64,000 nucleotides of DNA from a virus: the IMG/VR virus record IMGVR_UViG_3300027977_000007. The stretch is one strand, 5' to 3'. The translations under genes and the position numbers were made by a program. The notes under the pieces are model-generated. The model worked only from the letters and a program-made list of their open reading frames with translations, searched no databases and was not told the origin of the DNA. How positions within the stretch are numbered: position 1 is the stretch's first letter; each line of letters starts with the position of its first letter. Of the stretch, positions 18,556 through 61,821 are shown in pieces.

Positions 18556-20448
18556 TTATCTCAATTCAGCAACGTTAAACGTTGGTACACCATCTACACG
18601 GATAGCTCCGTAAAAGCGGTTATTTACCATTTTTTTAGCGTAACGTGTCATGATACCCTTAACTGGGGCAAAGTTAAACGGATTGTACATAGTTGGTGTA
18701 AGTTGCAAAGGCACGTATGGTGCGTAGATGTAACCTGTATCCAACAATGATTTACCTTTGTGACCGATGATGATTGAGTATGCTGGTGCATAAGGGTCAC
18801 GGTACACTTGGTAACGTCCGCTTAATGTACCGATTCTCTCAATACCCATGTTGTATTGGTCTTGCTCAGGGTTAGCATCACTTACGTGGAAGTATTCCAA
18901 ATCATCAAATATCGCTGAAATTTCAGAAGATACTACGATAATGTTAGCACCACCACGAAGAGTTGACTTGTGGATTTGAGCACTAGTTTGGTTTACTCTT
19001 GTGATAAGAGTTTGATTCCAGTCTTTTTGTGTGTAAGGACTTGCAGCAGAAGAAGCTCTTCTCCAACCGTTATAATCCCAACGTAATTGCCATGCAGAAC
19101 CTGTACGCAAATCTCTAAGGATTTCACGGTCAATTTCAGCAGCAACTTGTTCTGACAACATAGCTGTCAATTCAGCTTCAGCATCAATGTTGTGGAATGC
19201 ACTAACGTCTTGAGCCAATTCTGGTGACCATGTTGCACGTAATTTACGTTCTTCAACACTTACTACTACTTCGTCAAGTCTAAATGAAACTTCACCAAGT
19301 TCTGTTTCCAATTCAAGAGAAGCGTATTCAGCCCATCCAAAAACAAGACCAGCAGTAGTTGTAATCGCTGATACAGTTGTTGCAGAAGCACCAACATAAC
19401 CATCATAAGTTTCAGTACCAGCTACGGCAACACCGCTTGCAGTGGTACCAACTGGGTGACGTAAGTCAACCTCAACATACATTACATTACTAGAATTCGC
19501 TGCACCAGTTTTTGTACCTTGAACGATAGCCTTACCGTATTGTTGTGTAACTACACGGAATGGCACCTTACTACCACCAACAACAATTTTATTACCATCA
19601 CTATCTAAGATAGCATTAGTAGTAACACATTGTAATGAAGCCAAGAATGACTCAGTATCCATGTTGTTACCGTCTGGGCCAGTCAATACTCCACGGCCAT
19701 TAGTACCAGCACCACCACTGAAACCAGACATTGTTAAAAGAACAGTTCTAACTGAACCATCAGTTGCTCTTGGGAAAGAAGCTGATGGGGTCAATACTGT
19801 AAAAGTACCGTCAGAATTTAAAATGTTAGCGTTTGCATTAGTAATCGCATAGGTTTTCATTGTAAGAGTACCTTTAGAGTTATCGAACAAACCATCATCA
19901 TAGAATGCATCATACAAGTTTTTAGCTTGCATTTGAGTCAACTTAACACCGTTAGTAGAAACGATAGCTGGAACAGCAGCAGAAGTTGCAGAACCATCAT
20001 GCTCACCGTTAAGACCAGTGTGTGCTGAGTATTGTGTTCCATAAGTGGCATCAGTTGATGATACACCATTGTAGTTGCTACCAGCAACAGCTGGGTTAGC
20101 ACCGTTAACACGGCTAGATGTTTGTGGAACGAAGTAGAACAATTTACCAATTGGCATGTTCATAGCTTGAACCGATACGATATCATTCGCTAATAATTTA
20201 GAGAAAACTCTACGTACAATTGGGAATACAACTGTTTCGAAAGAACCAGATGATGTCGCTGTTGTGCTTTCGCTCAACAATTGAGAAGCTTGGTTCTCAT
20301 ACAATTGTGCAACGTTTTCTTTAACGTGGCCTTTTAGACCTTCTAGGAAGCCTAAGCTTTCCCATTTTGCTTGGGTTTCTTGACGGATAGCCTTCATGTG
20401 GTTCAATCCGATGTTACCAACTTGTCCAGATGTTAATAAATGTGACAT
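18556..20448 (-). CDS. gp23: Major capsid protein, T4 gp23-like
   Basis: RKLRATWSPELAQD, HNIDAEAEL, EIDREIL, YAPYVPL, GIMTRYA. Confidence 0.97.
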   Translation of the reverse strand: MSHLLTSGQVGNIGLNHMKAIRQETQAKWESLGFLEGLKGHVKENVAQLYENQASQLLSESTTATSSGSFETVVFPIVRRVFSKLLANDIVSVQAMNMPIGKLFYFVPQTSSRVNGANPAVAGSNYNGVSSTDATYGTQYSAHTGLNGEHDGSATSAAVPAIVSTNGVKLTQMQAKNLYDAFYDDGLFDNSKGTLTMKTYAITNANANILNSDGTFTVLTPSASFPRATDGSVRTVLLTMSGFSGGAGTNGRGVLTGPDGNNMDTESFLASLQCVTTNAILDSDGNKIVVGGSKVPFRVVTQQYGKAIVQGTKTGAANSSNVMYVEVDLRHPVGTTASGVAVAGTETYDGYVGASATTVSAITTTAGLVFGWAEYASLELETELGEVSFRLDEVVVSVEERKLRATWSPELAQDVSAFHNIDAEAELTAMLSEQVAAEIDREILRDLRTGSAWQLRWDYNGWRRASSAASPYTQKDWNQTLITRVNQTSAQIHKSTLRGGANIIVVSSEISAIFDDLEYFHVSDANPEQDQYNMGIERIGTLSGRYQVYRDPYAPAYSIIIGHKGKSLLDTGYIYAPYVPLQLTPTMYNPFNFAPVKGIMTRYAKKMVNNRFYGAIRVDGVPTFNVAELR

Positions 20449-51007: not shown

Positions 51008-52270
51008 ATGAAGTTCGTTAGATATAACCCAAGCCTGTTAGTTGAAAATGCTAAGCCAAATATGTCAGTAAAACAATTGGATGAAATAGACCAATTGGCC
51101 TCTAGTATCGATACCCACTTAGGTCAAGAACTACACGTACCAAATGATGTGCTTGATAGCTTTAAGATTAAGGATACCCTATCCCCAGATATCTGGCCCG
51201 ATGGCAACCTATCACCTAAGATTAAAACACAACTAGTAAGAATCGCTAAGGACTTTATTAAAGAACTTAAGCCCAAGACACCAATAAGGATTAAAGATAT
51301 TCTTTTTACTGGCTCTTTAGCTAATTATAATTGGTCCAAGTTCTCAGATATTGACATGCATATTCTAGTCGATTTTAATGACCTAGATGCAAATAAAGAT
51401 ATAGCCAAAGAATACTTTGATGCACAAAAAAATCTCTGGAACCAAAAACATGATATTACCGTATTCAATTATCCTGTTGAACTATATGTTCAAGATGTTA
51501 AAGAAAAATTGGTGGCAACCGCTGTGTATTCAGTATTGCACGATAAATGGATTAGAAAACCTGAGCGTGAAAGCTTTAAATTAAATAAAAAAGTCATAAA
51601 GGATAAAGCTGATAAATTTATTACACAACTTAAAGATATTAGAACCGCATATAAAAAAGAAGACTACCAAGAAGTTGTTGATATGGTCACTAGCCTTAAG
51701 GCTAAGATTAAAACGATGCGTAAATCAGGACTAGAAAAAGGTGGTGAACTCTCAGATGAAAATATCGTCTTTAAGGTCCTTAGAAGAACCCAATTTATGG
51801 AAATACTAGATAGCTTTAAGGCTAAGGCATATGATAAGCTTATGTCAGTTGTCGAAACGCTAAACGAAGATGAAAGATGGAACAAGGATGGTGTTGTCTT
51901 TATCCGTGGCCAAGTCTTGCCAGATAATGAACAACGACTTTTCGTAACAACTACTAAGAATATACTAAACGTAAATAAAAAAAAGAAAGATAACTCAGAT
52001 GCCATACCAGCTGAAATGATTTCTTTTGGTAATAATCCAGTATATCGTGTCGGTTTAATAGATGGTAGACTTAAGCCCCTAAAGGTGGATTGGAAATCTA
52101 AGGAATCTATGCTACAACGCTTAGGTCTTACTACGACAAGCCTTGCACTTAACGCTGATACCAAGACTCCATTGCATTGGAAATCTCTTAAGTATAATAA
52201 TGTAATAACAGCTATTAATAACCTATCCCAAGAATTACAAGCATTGCCAAATATAAAATGGATTAACTAA
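51008..52270 (+). CDS. Pol-beta superfamily nucleotidyltransferase with extra C-terminal domain
   Basis: GSLANYNWSKFSDIDMH, PVELYVQD; late motif at 50982. Confidence 0.8.
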   Translation: MKFVRYNPSLLVENAKPNMSVKQLDEIDQLASSIDTHLGQELHVPNDVLDSFKIKDTLSPDIWPDGNLSPKIKTQLVRIAKDFIKELKPKTPIRIKDILFTGSLANYNWSKFSDIDMHILVDFNDLDANKDIAKEYFDAQKNLWNQKHDITVFNYPVELYVQDVKEKLVATAVYSVLHDKWIRKPERESFKLNKKVIKDKADKFITQLKDIRTAYKKEDYQEVVDMVTSLKAKIKTMRKSGLEKGGELSDENIVFKVLRRTQFMEILDSFKAKAYDKLMSVVETLNEDERWNKDGVVFIRGQVLPDNEQRLFVTTTKNILNVNKKKKDNSDAIPAEMISFGNNPVYRVGLIDGRLKPLKVDWKSKESMLQRLGLTTTSLALNADTKTPLHWKSLKYNNVITAINNLSQELQALPNIKWIN

Positions 52271-55590: not shown

Positions 55591-56469
55591 TTAGTTATTA
55601 ACCATATCAAAAATAAGCTGGTGTGCAAGGTCGCTGGTTTTAGCTGCGCTTGTAAACATTAGTTTTTCTTCACAACCGTTTGCCGCTTCATGCGTGGTAT
55701 AACGGGTTGCACCTTGCAACAGGCTAAACAAGTTTGCACCTGTATTTTGCATCTCGATAGCTACGCTATTATTGATAGCGTCCATTATATTACGTTTACG
55801 GGTGCTAATTTCCTTAGCTTCGCCAAGTGTTACGCCTGTAAGGTTGTGGTAAAAGGTTTCCACTTGCTTAGCTGTTACGGGCGTTTTAAGCAACTTAGCT
55901 AGGCTATTTTGGTAGTCCGTAACATTGCTAATGGCTTTCGTAATTTCGTGCGTGTAAAGCATACTTTTAGCGTGGTTATTAGCCGTATTTTTGTAGGACA
56001 AATCAATATCCTTCTTCCAAGATTTCGCACCATTGGCGCACCACAAACGGAACGCATAAAAGCCTAAAGATACCTTTGTTTGCCCATCAAAGCCAGTCTT
56101 AAATTGCAATTTTGTTGCAAGTGTATCACCTACCATTGGGCTAGGTATATCGAAATTTTGCAATTGCAAATCGAACACAATTTTCGAGCCTTCGCAATAT
56201 TCATTATATGTCAATTTTGACAAATCTAATCCTGCTGCGATAGCTGATTCAACAATACTTGTAAGGAACAAATCTAGGTTCATTGGTTCAAAAATTTTAC
56301 CAACTACACCTAATGCCTTGCCACCCGTATGGCGATAAATACCATAGGTTTCGGGGCTATCAAATCCATCAATACCGCTATGTAGCTGTATTTTTTTAGG
56401 TTGGATAAGACGGTTGCGGATACCTTCAATGTTTGTAAACTCGTTGCTGATACTGTCTAAGATACTCAT
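55591..56469 (-). CDS. DUF932-family protein
   Basis: LGVVGK..P, GFDG, RLWCANG, LFSLLQGATRYTTH. Confidence 0.75.
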   Translation of the reverse strand: MSILDSISNEFTNIEGIRNRLIQPKKIQLHSGIDGFDSPETYGIYRHTGGKALGVVGKIFEPMNLDLFLTSIVESAIAAGLDLSKLTYNEYCEGSKIVFDLQLQNFDIPSPMVGDTLATKLQFKTGFDGQTKVSLGFYAFRLWCANGAKSWKKDIDLSYKNTANNHAKSMLYTHEITKAISNVTDYQNSLAKLLKTPVTAKQVETFYHNLTGVTLGEAKEISTRKRNIMDAINNSVAIEMQNTGANLFSLLQGATRYTTHEAANGCEEKLMFTSAAKTSDLAHQLIFDMVNN

Positions 56470-56720
56470 GTTAAAAAGTTGTTTGGGTTAAATGATGGTT
56501 CAAAGGTAAATAAACTTATTTAGAATTCCAAATCTTAACTAAAATAAACTTACATTTTTTTTATCGTTATGTATGTAGTATAGTAGTAATTATTTGCTGA
56601 CACAAAGATAAGTAAACTAATTTAAACGGCATAGTCTGAAACAAAACTTTTTTATTGGTATATAAATTAATACAAATTATTAAAAAATTATATATTAAAT
56701 TTGTTGGTGTCTAATTTATT

Positions 56721-56785
56721 GGACGTGTTGGAGTATACCTCCCGTTGGTATGTGCCAGCGTCCCGTTGCGTTTCTCTTAACAACG
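56721..56785 (-). ncRNA. Putative structured small RNA, copy A
   Basis: One of three copies; hairpin plus three-way junction; own promoter upstream; no ORF. Confidence 0.6.
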
Positions 56786-56896
56786 GTGTAAAATTAAGTA
56801 AAATAATTGAAACGGCATAACTTTTTTTAAGAAAAATAAATTTATTTTTAGGTAAAATAAATTAGATAATCTCGATAATTTGTTTTATCTTTACAA

Positions 56897-56959
56897 TGTT
56901 GTTACGAAAAGACAACGTGACGGTTGCTAGTGCAAGCGGAAGGTATACTCCAACACGTC
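56897..56959 (+). ncRNA. Putative structured small RNA, copy B
   Basis: Follows TATCTTTA at 56886; compensatory changes; U-rich tail. Confidence 0.6.
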
Positions 56960-57203
56960 TAATTTTTTTTATGTTTATTTTTTTATATTCTTTTTTATTT
57001 GTATGTGTTTTTTAATTATGTATTATAGTATTTTTCTTTGCCTGACTATATTAATAAACTAAAATAGGGCTGAAGGCTATTTTTAGGCTATTTAAGGGCG
57101 TTTTAGTATTGTTCCCTTATGTGTTATTAACTAACTTAATAAAGTGGCTTAAATTGGCTTAAAATAGGCTAGATTAATTAAATAGGGTATAATAGGGTAA
57201 AAT

Positions 57204-57238
57204 AAAAAAAACCCGTACATTAAATTGTACGGGTTTTT
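57204..57238. terminator. Intrinsic terminator
   Basis: aaaaacccgtaca/tgtacgggttttt. Confidence 0.8.
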
Positions 57239-57255
57239 CATATTGGTATTTTACC

Positions 57256-57313
57256 TTATACGGTAATGCCTTGCAGTTGTACTTCGGCTTTGTCAAATAT
57301 AAAGTTTCGATAT
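57256..57313 (-). pseudogene. Displaced duplicate 3' end of gene 58029-58607
   Basis: YRNFIFDKAEVQLQGITV* versus YRSFVFSKAEVQLQGITI*. Confidence 0.85.
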
Positions 57314-57393
57314 CTATATTTTTTTTATAAAAATTTAGTTTTTAACAAAATTTATTATATTTATAATTAAATAACAAATACTAAATATAATGT

Positions 57394-58008
57394 ATGAAAG
57401 ATTACTCAATAAAAAGAAAACAATGGTATCAAGAAAATAAAGAACGAATAAAATCTAAACAAAAAGAAAGGTATCAAGAAAATAAATCTGAAATAAAAGA
57501 AAAACATAAAGAATACTATGAAAAAAATAAAGAAGAGTTAAAAAGTAAACAAAAAGAATATAATTCCAAAAATTATGTTAAAGGTAGTAAAAATGAATAT
57601 TTTAAAGAATATAGAGAAAATAATAAAACGATATTACTTGAAAAAGCGAAAGAACGAAACAAACAAAAAAGAAAAACTGACCCACTATTTAAAATAAAAT
57701 CAAATATGCGTTCAAATATTGCTAATGCTGTTAAAAGAATAAACCATAAAAAAGAAAGTAAAACTGAGTTAATTTTAGGGTGTTCATTTGATGAATTAAA
57801 ACAATATTTAGAGTCTAAATTTGAGGTTTGGATGAATTGGGGTAATTACGGTCTGTATAACGGTGAACCCAATTTTGGTTGGGATATTGACCATAAAATA
57901 CCACAAAATAAAGCTTTGAATTATGAAGAATTAATAAAACTTAATCACTATACAAATTTACAACCTTTATGTAGTAAAATGAATAGAGATATTAAAAAGG
58001 GGTTTTAA
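57394..58008 (+). CDS. HNH homing endonuclease with Lys/Glu-rich N-terminal repeats
   Basis: LGCS..ELKQYLESKF..WMNWGNYG..WDIDHKIP..HYTNLQPL. Confidence 0.85.
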   Translation: MKDYSIKRKQWYQENKERIKSKQKERYQENKSEIKEKHKEYYEKNKEELKSKQKEYNSKNYVKGSKNEYFKEYRENNKTILLEKAKERNKQKRKTDPLFKIKSNMRSNIANAVKRINHKKESKTELILGCSFDELKQYLESKFEVWMNWGNYGLYNGEPNFGWDIDHKIPQNKALNYEELIKLNHYTNLQPLCSKMNRDIKKGF

Positions 58009-58028
58009 AACCCCTTTTTAATTTATAA

Positions 58029-58607
58029 TTATATGGTAATGCCTTGCAGTTGTACCTCGGCTTTTGAGAAAACAAAAGAACGATATTTGTCCTGCTTAAA
58101 CTCGCATACTTTTTTTATCTTATTCTGAATAATCGTCAACTCTCTTGATTTGGTTTCCTTATATTCAATCGGTTTGATAACTGTTTTTTTAACTACCAAT
58201 CCGAATACGTGCAATTGCATAGTTTCTATATGCAATTTAACACCCTTTGTAAGATGAATATATGCATCTTTTTGAGCATCTGATAATCCTATCGTTTTGT
58301 CGTTCTGTTGGCGCAAGGCTTCTTTTACCTCGTCACTTGATAATCTTTTCTCAAGTGACACATATACGTTATTGTAAGCCGTTTCAACCAGTTCGGTTGA
58401 ATAGTCCTTTTGCAATATACCAAAAACTTTATCTTTGTTCTCTTGCAATACCTTGAAGTCATTGATTAGGCAATTTTCGTATGTGATACCTGCAATAATT
58501 GTTTGGTTACTTACTTCGCCTTGCTTGTTAGCATAGTTACGGATACCAATAAAGCTAGTGCCTTTAATGGTTTTGGCGGCAACTAATAATTTTGATGTAG
58601 GTTGCAT
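58029..58607 (-). CDS. Hypothetical early protein
   Basis: 192 aa; TACATTTG promoter at 58643. Confidence 0.75.
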   Translation of the reverse strand: MQPTSKLLVAAKTIKGTSFIGIRNYANKQGEVSNQTIIAGITYENCLINDFKVLQENKDKVFGILQKDYSTELVETAYNNVYVSLEKRLSSDEVKEALRQQNDKTIGLSDAQKDAYIHLTKGVKLHIETMQLHVFGLVVKKTVIKPIEYKETKSRELTIIQNKIKKVCEFKQDKYRSFVFSKAEVQLQGITI

Positions 58608-58729
58608 TGGGTATTTTTTAAGTGATTAATTAATAACAAAAGCAAATGTAGTGTAAATTTCTGACAAAAACAAATCTTAATTAAAATAAAACAAAACTTT
58701 TTAATTGATATGTGAAATTACTATTAAAT

Positions 58730-58954
58730 TTATTTTAGGGAATTTAAAACCCTTTTACGAGCTGCATACCAACCATTTTTTTTACGGGTTTGGTGTTGCC
58801 TAATTTGTAAAACAGGTACAACAATTACACCAGTAACCATAACAATTACAACACATATTAAAAACAATTCTTTTACACCGATTAGGTGCTCGGCAGTTTT
58901 AGCTATTATAGTTAGAACCACAGCGATAATAATAAAGATAGTAAAATTTTTCAT
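58730..58954 (-). CDS. Small two-TM membrane protein
   Basis: Two hydrophobic helices, basic tail; promoter at 58986. Confidence 0.65.
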   Translation of the reverse strand: MKNFTIFIIIAVVLTIIAKTAEHLIGVKELFLICVVIVMVTGVIVVPVLQIRQHQTRKKNGWYAARKRVLNSLK

Positions 58955-59073
58955 GGGTGCATTTTGATTGGTTATTTTGATGTTGTAAAGATAAGTAAAT
59001 TAATTTAAACGGCATAACTTTAAACAAAACTTTTTAATTAATATACGAAAATAAATTGTATAATATAGTATGT

Positions 59074-59137
59074 ACGTGTCGGAGTATACCTTCCGCTTAC
59101 TTGTGGTAACCGTCCCGTTGCGTTTCTCTTAACAACG
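59074..59137 (-). ncRNA. Putative structured small RNA, copy C
   Basis: Follows TATCTTTA (59141-59148, minus strand); same fold as copies A and B. Confidence 0.6.
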
Positions 59138-59230
59138 ATGTAAAGATAAAACAAATTATTGAAACGGCATAGCGTTTTAAAAAATAAACTAAAATAAAAA
59201 AAGGGCTATTTCTAGCCCTTTTTTTATGAA

Positions 59231-59818: not shown

Positions 59819-60097
59819 GTCTAAATGTTTATTGGTTAATTGATGCTTCAAAGATAGCATTAATAATTCAAACGGCAAAACTTATTTTAGTTAAAACAAA
59901 AAATAAAGTAAAAATAATTTTCGATAAAAAATTTGGTAGTTTGGAATAAATTACCCATCTTTACAGAATCTTAAAAATACCAACATTACATTTAAATACC
60001 TTATGTTGATTATCCACATATGTCTATTTATAAAATGTGCCGTAAAACCCATTCATCGCTTTAGCGTGGATGGGATGTAAGGCACAAAGATAATGAA

Positions 60098-60508
60098 TTA
60101 ACCTTGTGAAAGGATATATTGACGTATTGTTTCTGGTGATGCTTCACCTATTGAACAAACGAAATAGCCATCTGACCAAAGTAATTTCTGATACCAATAT
60201 TGCTTACGAAGTACAGAATGATGGAGCAACCATAACTGACGAGTAGATTCTTGTTTTAACCTACGGACGATTTGAGCAATAGACAAACGAGGTATGTAAC
60301 GAATAAGAAAGTGAATATGGTTAATATCAGACTCCATAACTTCAATTTCAAAATCAGAACCATTGGCAATAGATTGAAATATTTGCTTAATATCATCATT
60401 TAACTGACCTATGAGCAACTTTTTACGATACTTACACACAAAGATTAGATGACACTTTAAGTAGTGTTTTGAACGATTTGTGCTGATGTAATTTGACTTT
60501 TTAGACAT
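60098..60508 (-). CDS. tnpA: Y1 HUH transposase TnpA
   Basis: HLIFVCKYR, NHIHFL, LWSDGYF, IRQYI. Confidence 0.95.
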   Translation of the reverse strand: MSKKSNYISTNRSKHYLKCHLIFVCKYRKKLLIGQLNDDIKQIFQSIANGSDFEIEVMESDINHIHFLIRYIPRLSIAQIVRRLKQESTRQLWLLHHSVLRKQYWYQKLLWSDGYFVCSIGEASPETIRQYILSQG

Positions 60509-60624
60509 AGTAGCGAAGTTTTTTGTGAATGTTTCTCAAACTCGATGGAAATATTTACAAAAAACGTAGCGAATTGTATAAATAAATTGTATCTTTGCAA
60601 AATATTAGACTATTTAATAGTAGA

Positions 60625-61821
60625 ATGAAAACAATTTTTCGGACATATCAATTTGAATTACAACCAACACAAGAGCAAAAAGTGTTGTTGGATAAGCATT
60701 TTGGATGTATCCGTTATGTTTACAACTACTTTTTAAATGAACGGAAAGTGCAATATCAAGCAGATAAAAAGTCTGATAATTACTATAAACAGGCAGCTAC
60801 CTTAACTGAATTAAAAAAGAAAGAAGAAACTGCTTGGCTCAAAGAAGTGAATAGTCAATCATTACAATTTGCTTTAAGATGTTTGGATACTGCTTATGTA
60901 AACTTTTTTAGAGGTAACGCTAAGTTTCCAAGATTTAAGTCAAGAAAAAAGAAAAACTCATTTACAGTTCCACAATTCGCAAAACTTGAAGATGGGAGAT
61001 TTTTTGCACCAAAATTCAAAGAAGGGATTAAAGTTAATATTCATCGTGAAGTGAAAGGTGAGATTGGTAAATGCACTTTGAGTAAAACACCAACAGGTAA
61101 ATATTTTGTTTCAATTCTATCAGAAGAACAATATCAACCAAAAGAAAAGACTGGTGCTCTTTGTGGAATAGATTTAGGTTTAAAAGACTTTGCTATTACT
61201 TCTGATGGCATTAAATTCAAGAACAACAAATACACAAAACAATATGAAAAAGAGTTAGCGAAAGCACAAAAACATCTTTCTCGTAAGACAAAAGGCAGTA
61301 ATTCGTTTGAAAGACAAAGACGAAAAACAGCAAGACTTCACGAGAAGATAACCAACTCACGAATGGATAACTTACACAAGGTTTCCCATCAATTAGTATC
61401 TGATTATGATATAATTGCATTAGAAGATTTGAATGTGAAAGGTATGGTCAAAAACCATAAACTCGCTAAACATATCTCTGATGCAAGTTGGGGAACTTTT
61501 GTTAGGTTGCTTGAATACAAGGCTGATTGGAACGATAAACAGATTGTAAAAATCAATCGTTTCTACCCATCAAGTAAAACCTGCTGTGAGTGTGGCTGGA
61601 TAAATCAAGACTTAAACCTTTCAATAAGAGAGTGGACTTGCAAAAATGGACACGTATTAGACCGTGATTTAAACGCTGCAAAGAATATTCTTAAAGAAGG
61701 ATTAAAAATAATATCGTCAGGAACTGGCGATTACACGGATGGAGATGGTGTAAGAAGTAGTAATACTCAACTATCTGTGAAGTCCGAAGCCCATCCCATC
61801 GCCTTTGGCGTGGGTAGGTAG
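60625..61821 (+). CDS. tnpB: RNA-guided nuclease TnpB
   Basis: GIDLG, LEDL, SSKTCCECG, DRDLNAAKNI (RuvC D/E/D intact); likely start MKTIFR. Confidence 0.95.
   Translation: MKTIFRTYQFELQPTQEQKVLLDKHFGCIRYVYNYFLNERKVQYQADKKSDNYYKQAATLTELKKKEETAWLKEVNSQSLQFALRCLDTAYVNFFRGNAKFPRFKSRKKKNSFTVPQFAKLEDGRFFAPKFKEGIKVNIHREVKGEIGKCTLSKTPTGKYFVSILSEEQYQPKEKTGALCGIDLGLKDFAITSDGIKFKNNKYTKQYEKELAKAQKHLSRKTKGSNSFERQRRKTARLHEKITNSRMDNLHKVSHQLVSDYDIIALEDLNVKGMVKNHKLAKHISDASWGTFVRLLEYKADWNDKQIVKINRFYPSSKTCCECGWINQDLNLSIREWTCKNGHVLDRDLNAAKNILKEGLKIISSGTGDYTDGDGVRSSNTQLSVKSEAHPIAFGVGR

Follow-up and report, generated by a model that had tools for sequence, protein, structure and literature searches.

A 64,000-nucleotide (nt) stretch of viral DNA (IMG/VR virus record IMGVR_UViG_3300027977_000007; hereafter the window) carries in its early region three copies of a short element, each joined to a promoter. 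The question that this locus raises is whether a functional RNA is made from these copies, or whether they serve as leaders of the genes behind them or as sites in the DNA. The comparison of the copies with their relatives described below shows that they are genes of an uncatalogued family of promoter-fused, folded small RNAs of ~65 to 80 nt.

Three RNA genes in the window

The three copies, termed A, B and C, are present where a sequence-only reading of the window had placed them, at 56721-56785(-), 56897-56959(+) and 59074-59137(-). A covariance model of the core of the element (R1), run with filters off on both strands of the 64 kb, gave exactly three matches, of which C scored highest (57.2 bits), followed by A (53.4 bits) and B (50.1 bits), with E values of 1e-11 to 6e-10 for the 64-kb window. 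Each copy starts 3 to 4 nt past a -7-type box, which reads TTAATTTTA in A and TTATCTTTA in B and C, and copies A and B stand back to back with divergent promoters. When the three copies were aligned, the variable arm was seen to keep its pairing in all of them, while the other arm, described earlier as nearly invariant, contains the stretch GG(G/A)AGGTATACTCC, which is identical in A, B and C. The promoters and the parts of each RNA, namely a 5' hairpin (P1), a three-base joint, a variable hairpin (P2), a constant module and a tail, are as follows.

56786..56836, - strand: promoter of copy A, read from the sequence, with upstream box TATGCCGTTT at 56810-56819 and -7 box TTAATTTTA at 56789-56797
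56721..56785, - strand: RNA copy A, with P1 at 56785-56764, joint GGA at 56763-56761, P2 at 56760-56743, constant module at 56742-56730 and tail AACACGUCC at 56729-56721
56590..56640, - strand: second promoter of module A, with TATGCCGTTT at 56624-56633 and TTATCTTTG; repeat D6; predicted to drive the DUF932 gene at 55591-56469(-)
56850..56896, + strand: promoter of copy B, with -7 box TTATCTTTA; divergent from the promoter of A; inverted repeat I2 with the promoter of C
56897..56970, + strand: RNA copy B, with P1 at 56897-56917, joint UGA at 56918-56920, P2 at 56921-56938, constant module at 56939-56951, tail at 56952-56959 and U-run at 56963-56970 (a T-run 11 nt past the module)
59138..59190, - strand: promoter of copy C, with TATGCCGTTT at 59162-59171 and -7 box TTATCTTTA at 59141-59149
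59073..59137, - strand: RNA copy C, with P1 at 59137-59116, joint GGA at 59115-59113, P2 at 59112-59094, constant module at 59093-59081 and tail GACACGUA at 59080-59073
58975..59020, - strand: second promoter of module C, with TATGCCGTTT at 59007-59016; predicted to drive the gene of a 74-amino-acid (aa) membrane protein at 58730-58954(-)

Copies A and C each form the first half of a duplicated ~240-nt module, which consists of promoter, RNA, spacer and second promoter. The earlier statement that none of the copies leads into an open reading frame is narrowly true, but A and C precede co-oriented genes, at distances of 252 and 120 nt, respectively, and no clear terminator was seen between either copy and the gene behind it when the sequence was read by eye. 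These genes do have promoters of their own, as had been proposed; they are the second promoters listed above. Copy C is a chimera, with a promoter and P1 like those of A and a P2 base and module position N55 like those of B.

In this region, the box TATGCCGTTT stands ~10 nt ahead of the -7 box at four promoters, those of RNA A, of RNA C and of the two genes behind them. Since no further perfect match to this box was found elsewhere in the 64-kb window, these promoters may form a local promoter class.

Relatives and fold of the RNA family

The element had not been recognised from its sequence, and the catalogues agree with this. ARAGORN found 0 tRNA or tmRNA genes in the window, and Rfam 15 gave no match in the window at gathering score. 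At E values up to 1, no Rfam model covered the element in 11 homologous loci, and at E values up to 10 the A/B region drew only spurious long-hairpin microRNA models. A literature search for the motif returned only unrelated primers.

Relatives were found in IMG/VR, where a pattern taken from the constant part retrieved 40 contig stretches, often with several loci per contig. R1 scored 71 places at 23 to 67 bits, 42 of them distinct, and looser patterns yielded chance matches and only five further true members. The carriers amount to ~33 IMG/VR contigs (counted from contig names), mostly from giant phages, many of which have 200 to 400 kb. Large contigs measure 362 kb (with terminal repeats), 253 kb and 217 kb, and others are fragments that represent 8 to 40% of a genome by CheckV. 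Each contig has one to seven copies clustered within a few kb, as in G008, where five lie within 3.2 kb. A scan of prokaryotes, with one genome for each of 185,579 species, found no full family member and gave only four matches, all by chance, at no more than 19.5 bits; the family therefore seems confined to phage DNA. Among GenBank phages, the one relative that blastn with family members picked up is a weak and divergent one in Tenacibaculum phage Larrie (ON950054, about 18770-18840; 13 bits), which reads ...GGAAGAGUAGACUCCAACCUACCUUAU... behind a consensus promoter, and a near-identity search with a 14-kb region of the window gave no match. A protein search for cultured carriers with the DUF932 protein of the window likewise gave none. 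The ~33 carriers are uncultured phages of Bacteroidota-type hosts.

The anatomy of the family was derived from alignments A2, A3 and A4. The promoter is of Bacteroidota type (TTTG, ~19 nt, TAnnTTTG) and lies at a fixed distance from the RNA, so that P1, a hairpin of 3 to 10 base pairs (bp) with free sequence, begins 3 to 4 nt past it, at about +1. The last base of P1 is G30, which is usually paired with U. At least 4 bp are formed in P1 in 31 of 39 copies, compared with 25% of shuffles. P1 contains 36 G-U pairs, 25 of which are the outermost U-G pair; because these would be C-A mismatches on the other strand, the RNA is read from the promoter strand. A joint of three bases, N31-G32-A33, leads into P2, a hairpin of variable sequence that is closed by C34-G53 and G35-C52. 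Four of the five modelled P2 pairs were changed on both sides, the observed covariation was reached by 0 of 500 shuffles, and P2 pairs topped the mutual-information list. The closing pairs themselves co-vary in rare variants, from C-G to U-A in L015:776 and from G-C to A-U in L032 and L014:510. Collectively, compensatory changes across ~46 distinct relatives support P1 and P2.

The near-invariant module, GGNARGUAKACUCC, abuts P2 without a spacer. Within it, N55 is G, A, U or absent, G57 is replaced by A in eight distinct copies, U61 is replaced by G once and in Larrie, and the rest is constant. Of two candidate registers, these variants best fit a short irregular hairpin with pairs G58-C63 and R57-U64 and a UANA loop, and the GGAG/CUCC register proposed by RNAalifold fits them less well. 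The tail that follows reads RACCUAC in the family and RACACGU in the lineage of the window, and a U-run begins exactly 13 nt past the module in 14 listed members and 11 nt past it in copy B. A second subfamily, in which P2 is GGUUCGGAACAAGGAAGC, is often single-copy and has a separate 10-bp terminator 35 to 47 nt further on. A U at joint position 32 occurs in four to six of the eight A57 copies, compared with 0 of 38 G57 copies. The A57 and G57 subtypes co-occur in the same genomes, and where two inward-facing units bracket a gene, the sense-side copy is of the A57 type in four of seven brackets. The link between U32 and A57 may mean that the joint touches the module, or else that the subtypes are old paralogues, each with a partner of its own.

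These results bear on the common fold that the sequence-only reading had drawn for the three copies, a 5' hairpin followed by a three-way junction. Its 5' hairpin and variable arm are retained in the family as P1 and P2; the stem closing the junction, (G)ACG/CGU(C), is not a common feature and was found only in the window copies and in L001:2568, L029 and L033:4594. This stem competes with the base of P2, because it uses C34 and G35, which covary with G53 and C52. Single-sequence folding gave the proposed fold in none of the three copies; past the 5' hairpin each copy yielded a different structure, and copy A alone was more stable than its shuffles (z -2.7). The closing stem runs directly into a U-run in window copy B and in L033:4594, where it may be a terminator stem. 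The self-complementary hexamer GUAUAC, which had suggested multimers formed through kissing loops, reads GUAGAC in L047:5792 and in Larrie; since the palindrome is broken in both, a kissing loop is not conserved.

Candidate roles of the RNA

The reading that we prefer, although we hold it only tentatively, is that the family members are stand-alone early small RNAs in which joint, module and tail bind a conserved partner, so that the RNA acts as a decoy or sponge. The abundant early decoy suggested by the sequence-only reading was a reasonable inference in this respect. Joint, module and tail would form one compact surface, in keeping with the joint change G32 to U that accompanies the module change G57 to A, and this surface would bind a highly conserved putative partner, for which a host protein or an RNA-protein machine is the likeliest candidate. 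The phage is predicted to make the RNA early from several strong promoters, and the RNA would then titrate or redirect its putative partner, while the variable hairpins would do no more than provide a scaffold and protect the 5' end. The units mostly look like self-contained mini-genes, because they have their own promoter at a fixed distance and, in many cases, the U-run at 13 nt; other members, with a separate strong terminator, are also counted as self-contained. A stand-alone RNA is favoured because the units are such mini-genes, because many of them cannot be leaders, because their folding is selected and because their constant part is far better conserved than the phage proteins. The DUF932 proteins encoded beside units are only 18 to 21% identical to that of the window, except for one 54% relative, and the constancy of the module next to such diverging proteins was counted in favour of a conserved partner. 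The one to seven clustered copies per contig were counted in favour of a dosage role, and the apparent confinement of the family to phage DNA also counts for this reading.

Several observations weigh against this reading. The partner of the module and the expression of the RNA remain putative. No clear terminator was seen for copies A and C, and transcription from them may continue into the genes that follow. The tail sequence ACCUACC can pair with GGNAGGU in most members with the U-run at 13 nt, as an attenuator would. Single genes often lie between two copies, in keeping with a role in genome architecture, and the U32/A57 link could reflect two old paralogous subtypes with no physical contact between the bases. 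In addition, two near-complete genomes have a single copy, and the argument for a pure dosage or sponge effect is therefore weakened.

Among known protein-titrating small RNAs, CsrB/RsmZ and 6S RNA resemble the family in that a short constant motif is shown many times (here by several genes per genome) on a variable, non-coding scaffold with probably high, predicted expression. They differ in that each RNA here has one motif, which is not a GGA motif, in that the carriers are phages, and in that the partner is putative. Most of what is known about phage-encoded small RNAs comes from a few model phages, and Hfq and ProQ are lacking in Bacteroidota. The family is a folded RNA with a 14-nt constant module and its own promoters, situated in the early or accessory region, and it has been retained by very distantly related giant phages whose hosts belong to a phylum of ecological dominance. 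Should the partner be a host machine or a defence protein, the RNA would represent a new RNA-based device for takeover or anti-defence and would also open a way into the RNA biology of Bacteroidota. Should the units serve mainly as cassette boundaries, they would show how giant phages shuffle accessory genes.

The alternative that survives best, which we nonetheless regard as unlikely, is that the element controls transcription in cis. It would be a leader in which the module hairpin and a terminator formed by GGNAGGU, ACCUACC and the U-rich tract exclude each other. The choice between a short RNA and read-through would be made by a factor on the constant module or, as with the put RNA of phage HK022, by the RNA itself through the polymerase that transcribes it. 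In favour of this, the element starts at about +1 of its promoter, and its 5' strand is shared by two hairpins that exclude each other and have about equal energies (about -6 versus -6 to -8.6 kcal/mol), with the U-run at a fixed distance. Moreover, ~60% of units have a co-oriented gene downstream, including A and C, for which no clear terminator was seen. Protein-bound antiterminator (RAT) sites typically have a constant sequence that overlaps a terminator. With these and with the put RNA of phage HK022, the units share a promoter-proximal folded RNA of ~70 nt, several promoters per phage and a constant part overlapping a possible terminator. However, the genes downstream of the units have their own consensus promoters between the element and the start codon, and more than one-third of units point at the 3' end of a convergent, opposite-strand gene that has its own terminator. 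Units that face the 3' end of a gene cannot be its leader, and many units, unlike put or RAT sites, face away from genes that they could control. Furthermore, A57 copies keep C70, the window copies have no ACCU, no compensatory change among the members supports the alternative hairpin, and one subfamily has the separate terminator described above. For a riboswitch, too, the alternative terminator pairing exists, but no covariation was found for it and no consistent gene lies downstream.

Somewhat less likely than control in cis is that the units are cassette-boundary modules, which would insulate small accessory genes and provide short homology for swapping, with the RNA as a by-product. The PeSLs of T4-type phages, in which strong early promoters are combined with terminator stem-loops, mediate modular shuffling (Arbiol et al. 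2010, PMC2839356). As in PeSLs, strong host-type early promoters are joined here to stem-loops, and the units are repeated in plastic regions that flank small genes of unknown function and bear traces of recombination. Single genes lie between two inward-facing units at seven places (nine loci, some of which are views of the same place), and these bracketed genes encode DUF932 proteins at four places, a DUF6011 protein, and two proteins of unknown function. Further traces are the chimeric copy C and the 3' end of a gene that is duplicated at 57256-57313, and a multi-copy gene of candidate HNH type adjoins copy B. In PeSLs, however, the stem-loop is placed within the promoter or ahead of it, and the start of the gene follows immediately (PMC2839356), whereas in this family the start site comes first, three covarying hairpins with a 14-nt constant module are transcribed, and a second promoter stands before the gene. 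A by-product is argued against by the compensatory changes in both hairpins, P1 and P2, and by the G-U pairs that are possible on one strand only, since they show selection on RNA folding, and a 14-nt module that is constant across very distant phages is needed neither for homology nor for termination. A cassette-boundary role could coexist with an RNA function.

The decoy reading also has a bolder form, which we consider improbable. In this form, a widely conserved bacterial RNA-binding factor would recognise the surface formed by joint, module and tail, with base 32 contacting base 57. Bacteroidota phages would present this surface through several genes of one unit each, and some Bacillota would present the same motif of 14 to 16 nt (GGNAGGUAYACUCC-RA) in tandem arrays on their chromosomes; together these would constitute a new cross-phylum class of protein-titrating RNAs that phages have copied for host takeover.

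The arrays in question are tandem repeats of 56- to 58-nt non-coding units, in 2.4 to ~7 copies, on bacterial-looking metagenome contigs, at these places.

L088:5500-5935 (the same place as in L094): tandem array
L100:2272-2692, - strand: tandem array
L112:217-880: tandem array

Almost every array unit contains GGNNGGUAYACUCC-RA and most contain UACC downstream, which matches the phage module. The arrays in L088 and L100 end in a terminator, while the L112 contig is too short to tell, and the only taxonomic hint, from L088, is Bacillota. No Rfam match was obtained for the arrays, and no toxin gene was recognised beside them. The agreement beyond the 11-mer used in the search is modest, with a chance of ~1 in 10 given the unrelated tandem repeats that were recovered, and we therefore treat the arrays as a possible lead to a bacterial multivalent form of the motif, not as a finding.

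That the copies are origin-associated transcripts, short RNAs that open or prime nearby origins as at the T7 or T4 origins, is very unlikely. The divergent pair A/B does lie near the minimum of cumulative GC skew, and copy B is transcribed into a stretch of ~90 nt that looks AT-rich by eye, followed by about nine GGCT-type repeats (56960-57200). Perfect DnaA boxes, TGTGGATAA, also lie downstream of units in L030, L036, L027 and L033. However, matches to the DnaA box occur at chance frequency in the window and none lies next to a copy, and the boxes in L027 and L033 read as upstream elements of promoters that lie on the opposite strand and are directed back at the unit. Priming would leave the constant folded module unexplained, and origins would not be expected in such numbers, with five to seven units in a short region.

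The boxes outside the window lie in the regions L030:2889-3060, L036:11447-11620, L027:1400-1549 and L033:3960-4060. In the window, the repeats behind copy B (56960-57240, by eye), which are of GGCT/GGGT type, include TAGGGCT, AAGGCTA, TAGGCTA, GTGGCTTAAA, TTGGCTTAAAA and ATAGGGTA, and they end at 57206-57239 in what reads as a two-way terminator. This stretch could be an origin or an operator cluster.

Slightly less probable again is an antisense RNA that would pair with mRNAs of phage or host through its constant stretch or its variable loop. The constant ACUCC and GGAGG resemble anti-Shine-Dalgarno and Shine-Dalgarno sequences, and P1 of copy B has a 14-nt complement at 51938-51951 and P2 of copy C a 13-nt complement at 927-939. 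However, GGAG precedes the start codon in one of the 76 window genes, against 0.7 expected, no second window site matches the module at 9 or more of 10 bases, and both long complements are far from the copies, fall in variable parts and are near chance.

The least probable of these alternatives is an RNA anti-CRISPR, in which the element would mimic a host CRISPR repeat, of Cas13b or another type, containing GGNAGGUAUACUCC, and would load Cas proteins unproductively. A stand-alone unit of promoter and hairpin on phages is what would be expected of it, and Racr RNAs and the pseudo-ToxI of phage PhiTE are likewise small non-coding phage units that have a promoter of their own and could mimic an RNA of the host. 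As leads only, the element resembles type I-F repeats in layout, with its stem, GUAUA loop and 8-nt tail, and the end of Cas13b repeats reads ...GGUAU..CAAC. The likeness to Cas13b repeats that had been noted for GUUG/CAAC falls, because this pairing is not conserved across the family; it is lineage-specific and is replaced elsewhere by GUC/GAC, GUUCA/UGAACG or GUUAUC/GAUAAC. In contrast to Racr and pseudo-ToxI, the units are dispersed and the 185,579 prokaryotic genomes contain neither a full copy of the element nor a host RNA of this sequence, and a metagenome scan for two AGGTATACTCC copies 40 to 70 nt apart gave no array in which the module is the repeat.

The same scan did find CRISPR arrays with 36-nt repeats (GCTGTGGTTTGATGGGAATC..CGCTCAGGTATACT) and 30-nt spacers in L089, L092, L096, L097, L099, L102, L103 and L107. 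The repeats share only 9 nt at the repeat end (AGGTATACT), the spacers are GC-rich by eye, and these arrays appear unrelated to the phage RNA.

Two further candidates were rejected: a mimic of the ribosomal L1-stalk site (GGGAGG...CCGACCU), which was based on E. coli and involves loop bases that are not conserved in the Rfam bacterial consensus, and a type III antitoxin of ToxI type, since the phage units are single and dispersed in both orientations and are not tandem repeats.

Genes and mobile elements around the copies

The neighbours of the units are small genes of unknown function. A DUF932 protein is encoded ~100 to 250 nt from a unit in eight contigs, in co-directional, convergent or divergent arrangement. 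DUF932 was rejected as an obligatory partner, as the gene is absent from a 94%-complete carrier. A comparison of the DUF932 model (pLDDT 71) with solved folds gave no significant match (best E 1.2e-2).

The gene at 57394-58008, beside copy B, encodes a 204-aa protein with a Lys/Glu-rich, repetitive N-terminus and contains tandem 45-nt repeats. Its 3' half has relatives at the DNA level (69 to 76% identity) in six other family loci, twice in L018. Because the relative in L031 scores weakly, below the cut-off, against an HNH family, the 204-aa gene may encode a mobile endonuclease. A 58-nt segment (57256-57313) of the non-coding DNA that follows copy B is a copy, at 79% identity, of the 3' end (58029-58086) of a 192-aa gene and represents a remnant of rearrangement. 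Finally, an IS200/IS605-type pair lies ~1 kb from copy C, comprising a Y1 transposase gene, tnpA, at 60098-60508(-) and a TnpB/Cas12f-like gene at 60595-61821(+), with a perfect DnaA box nearby at 60010-60018.

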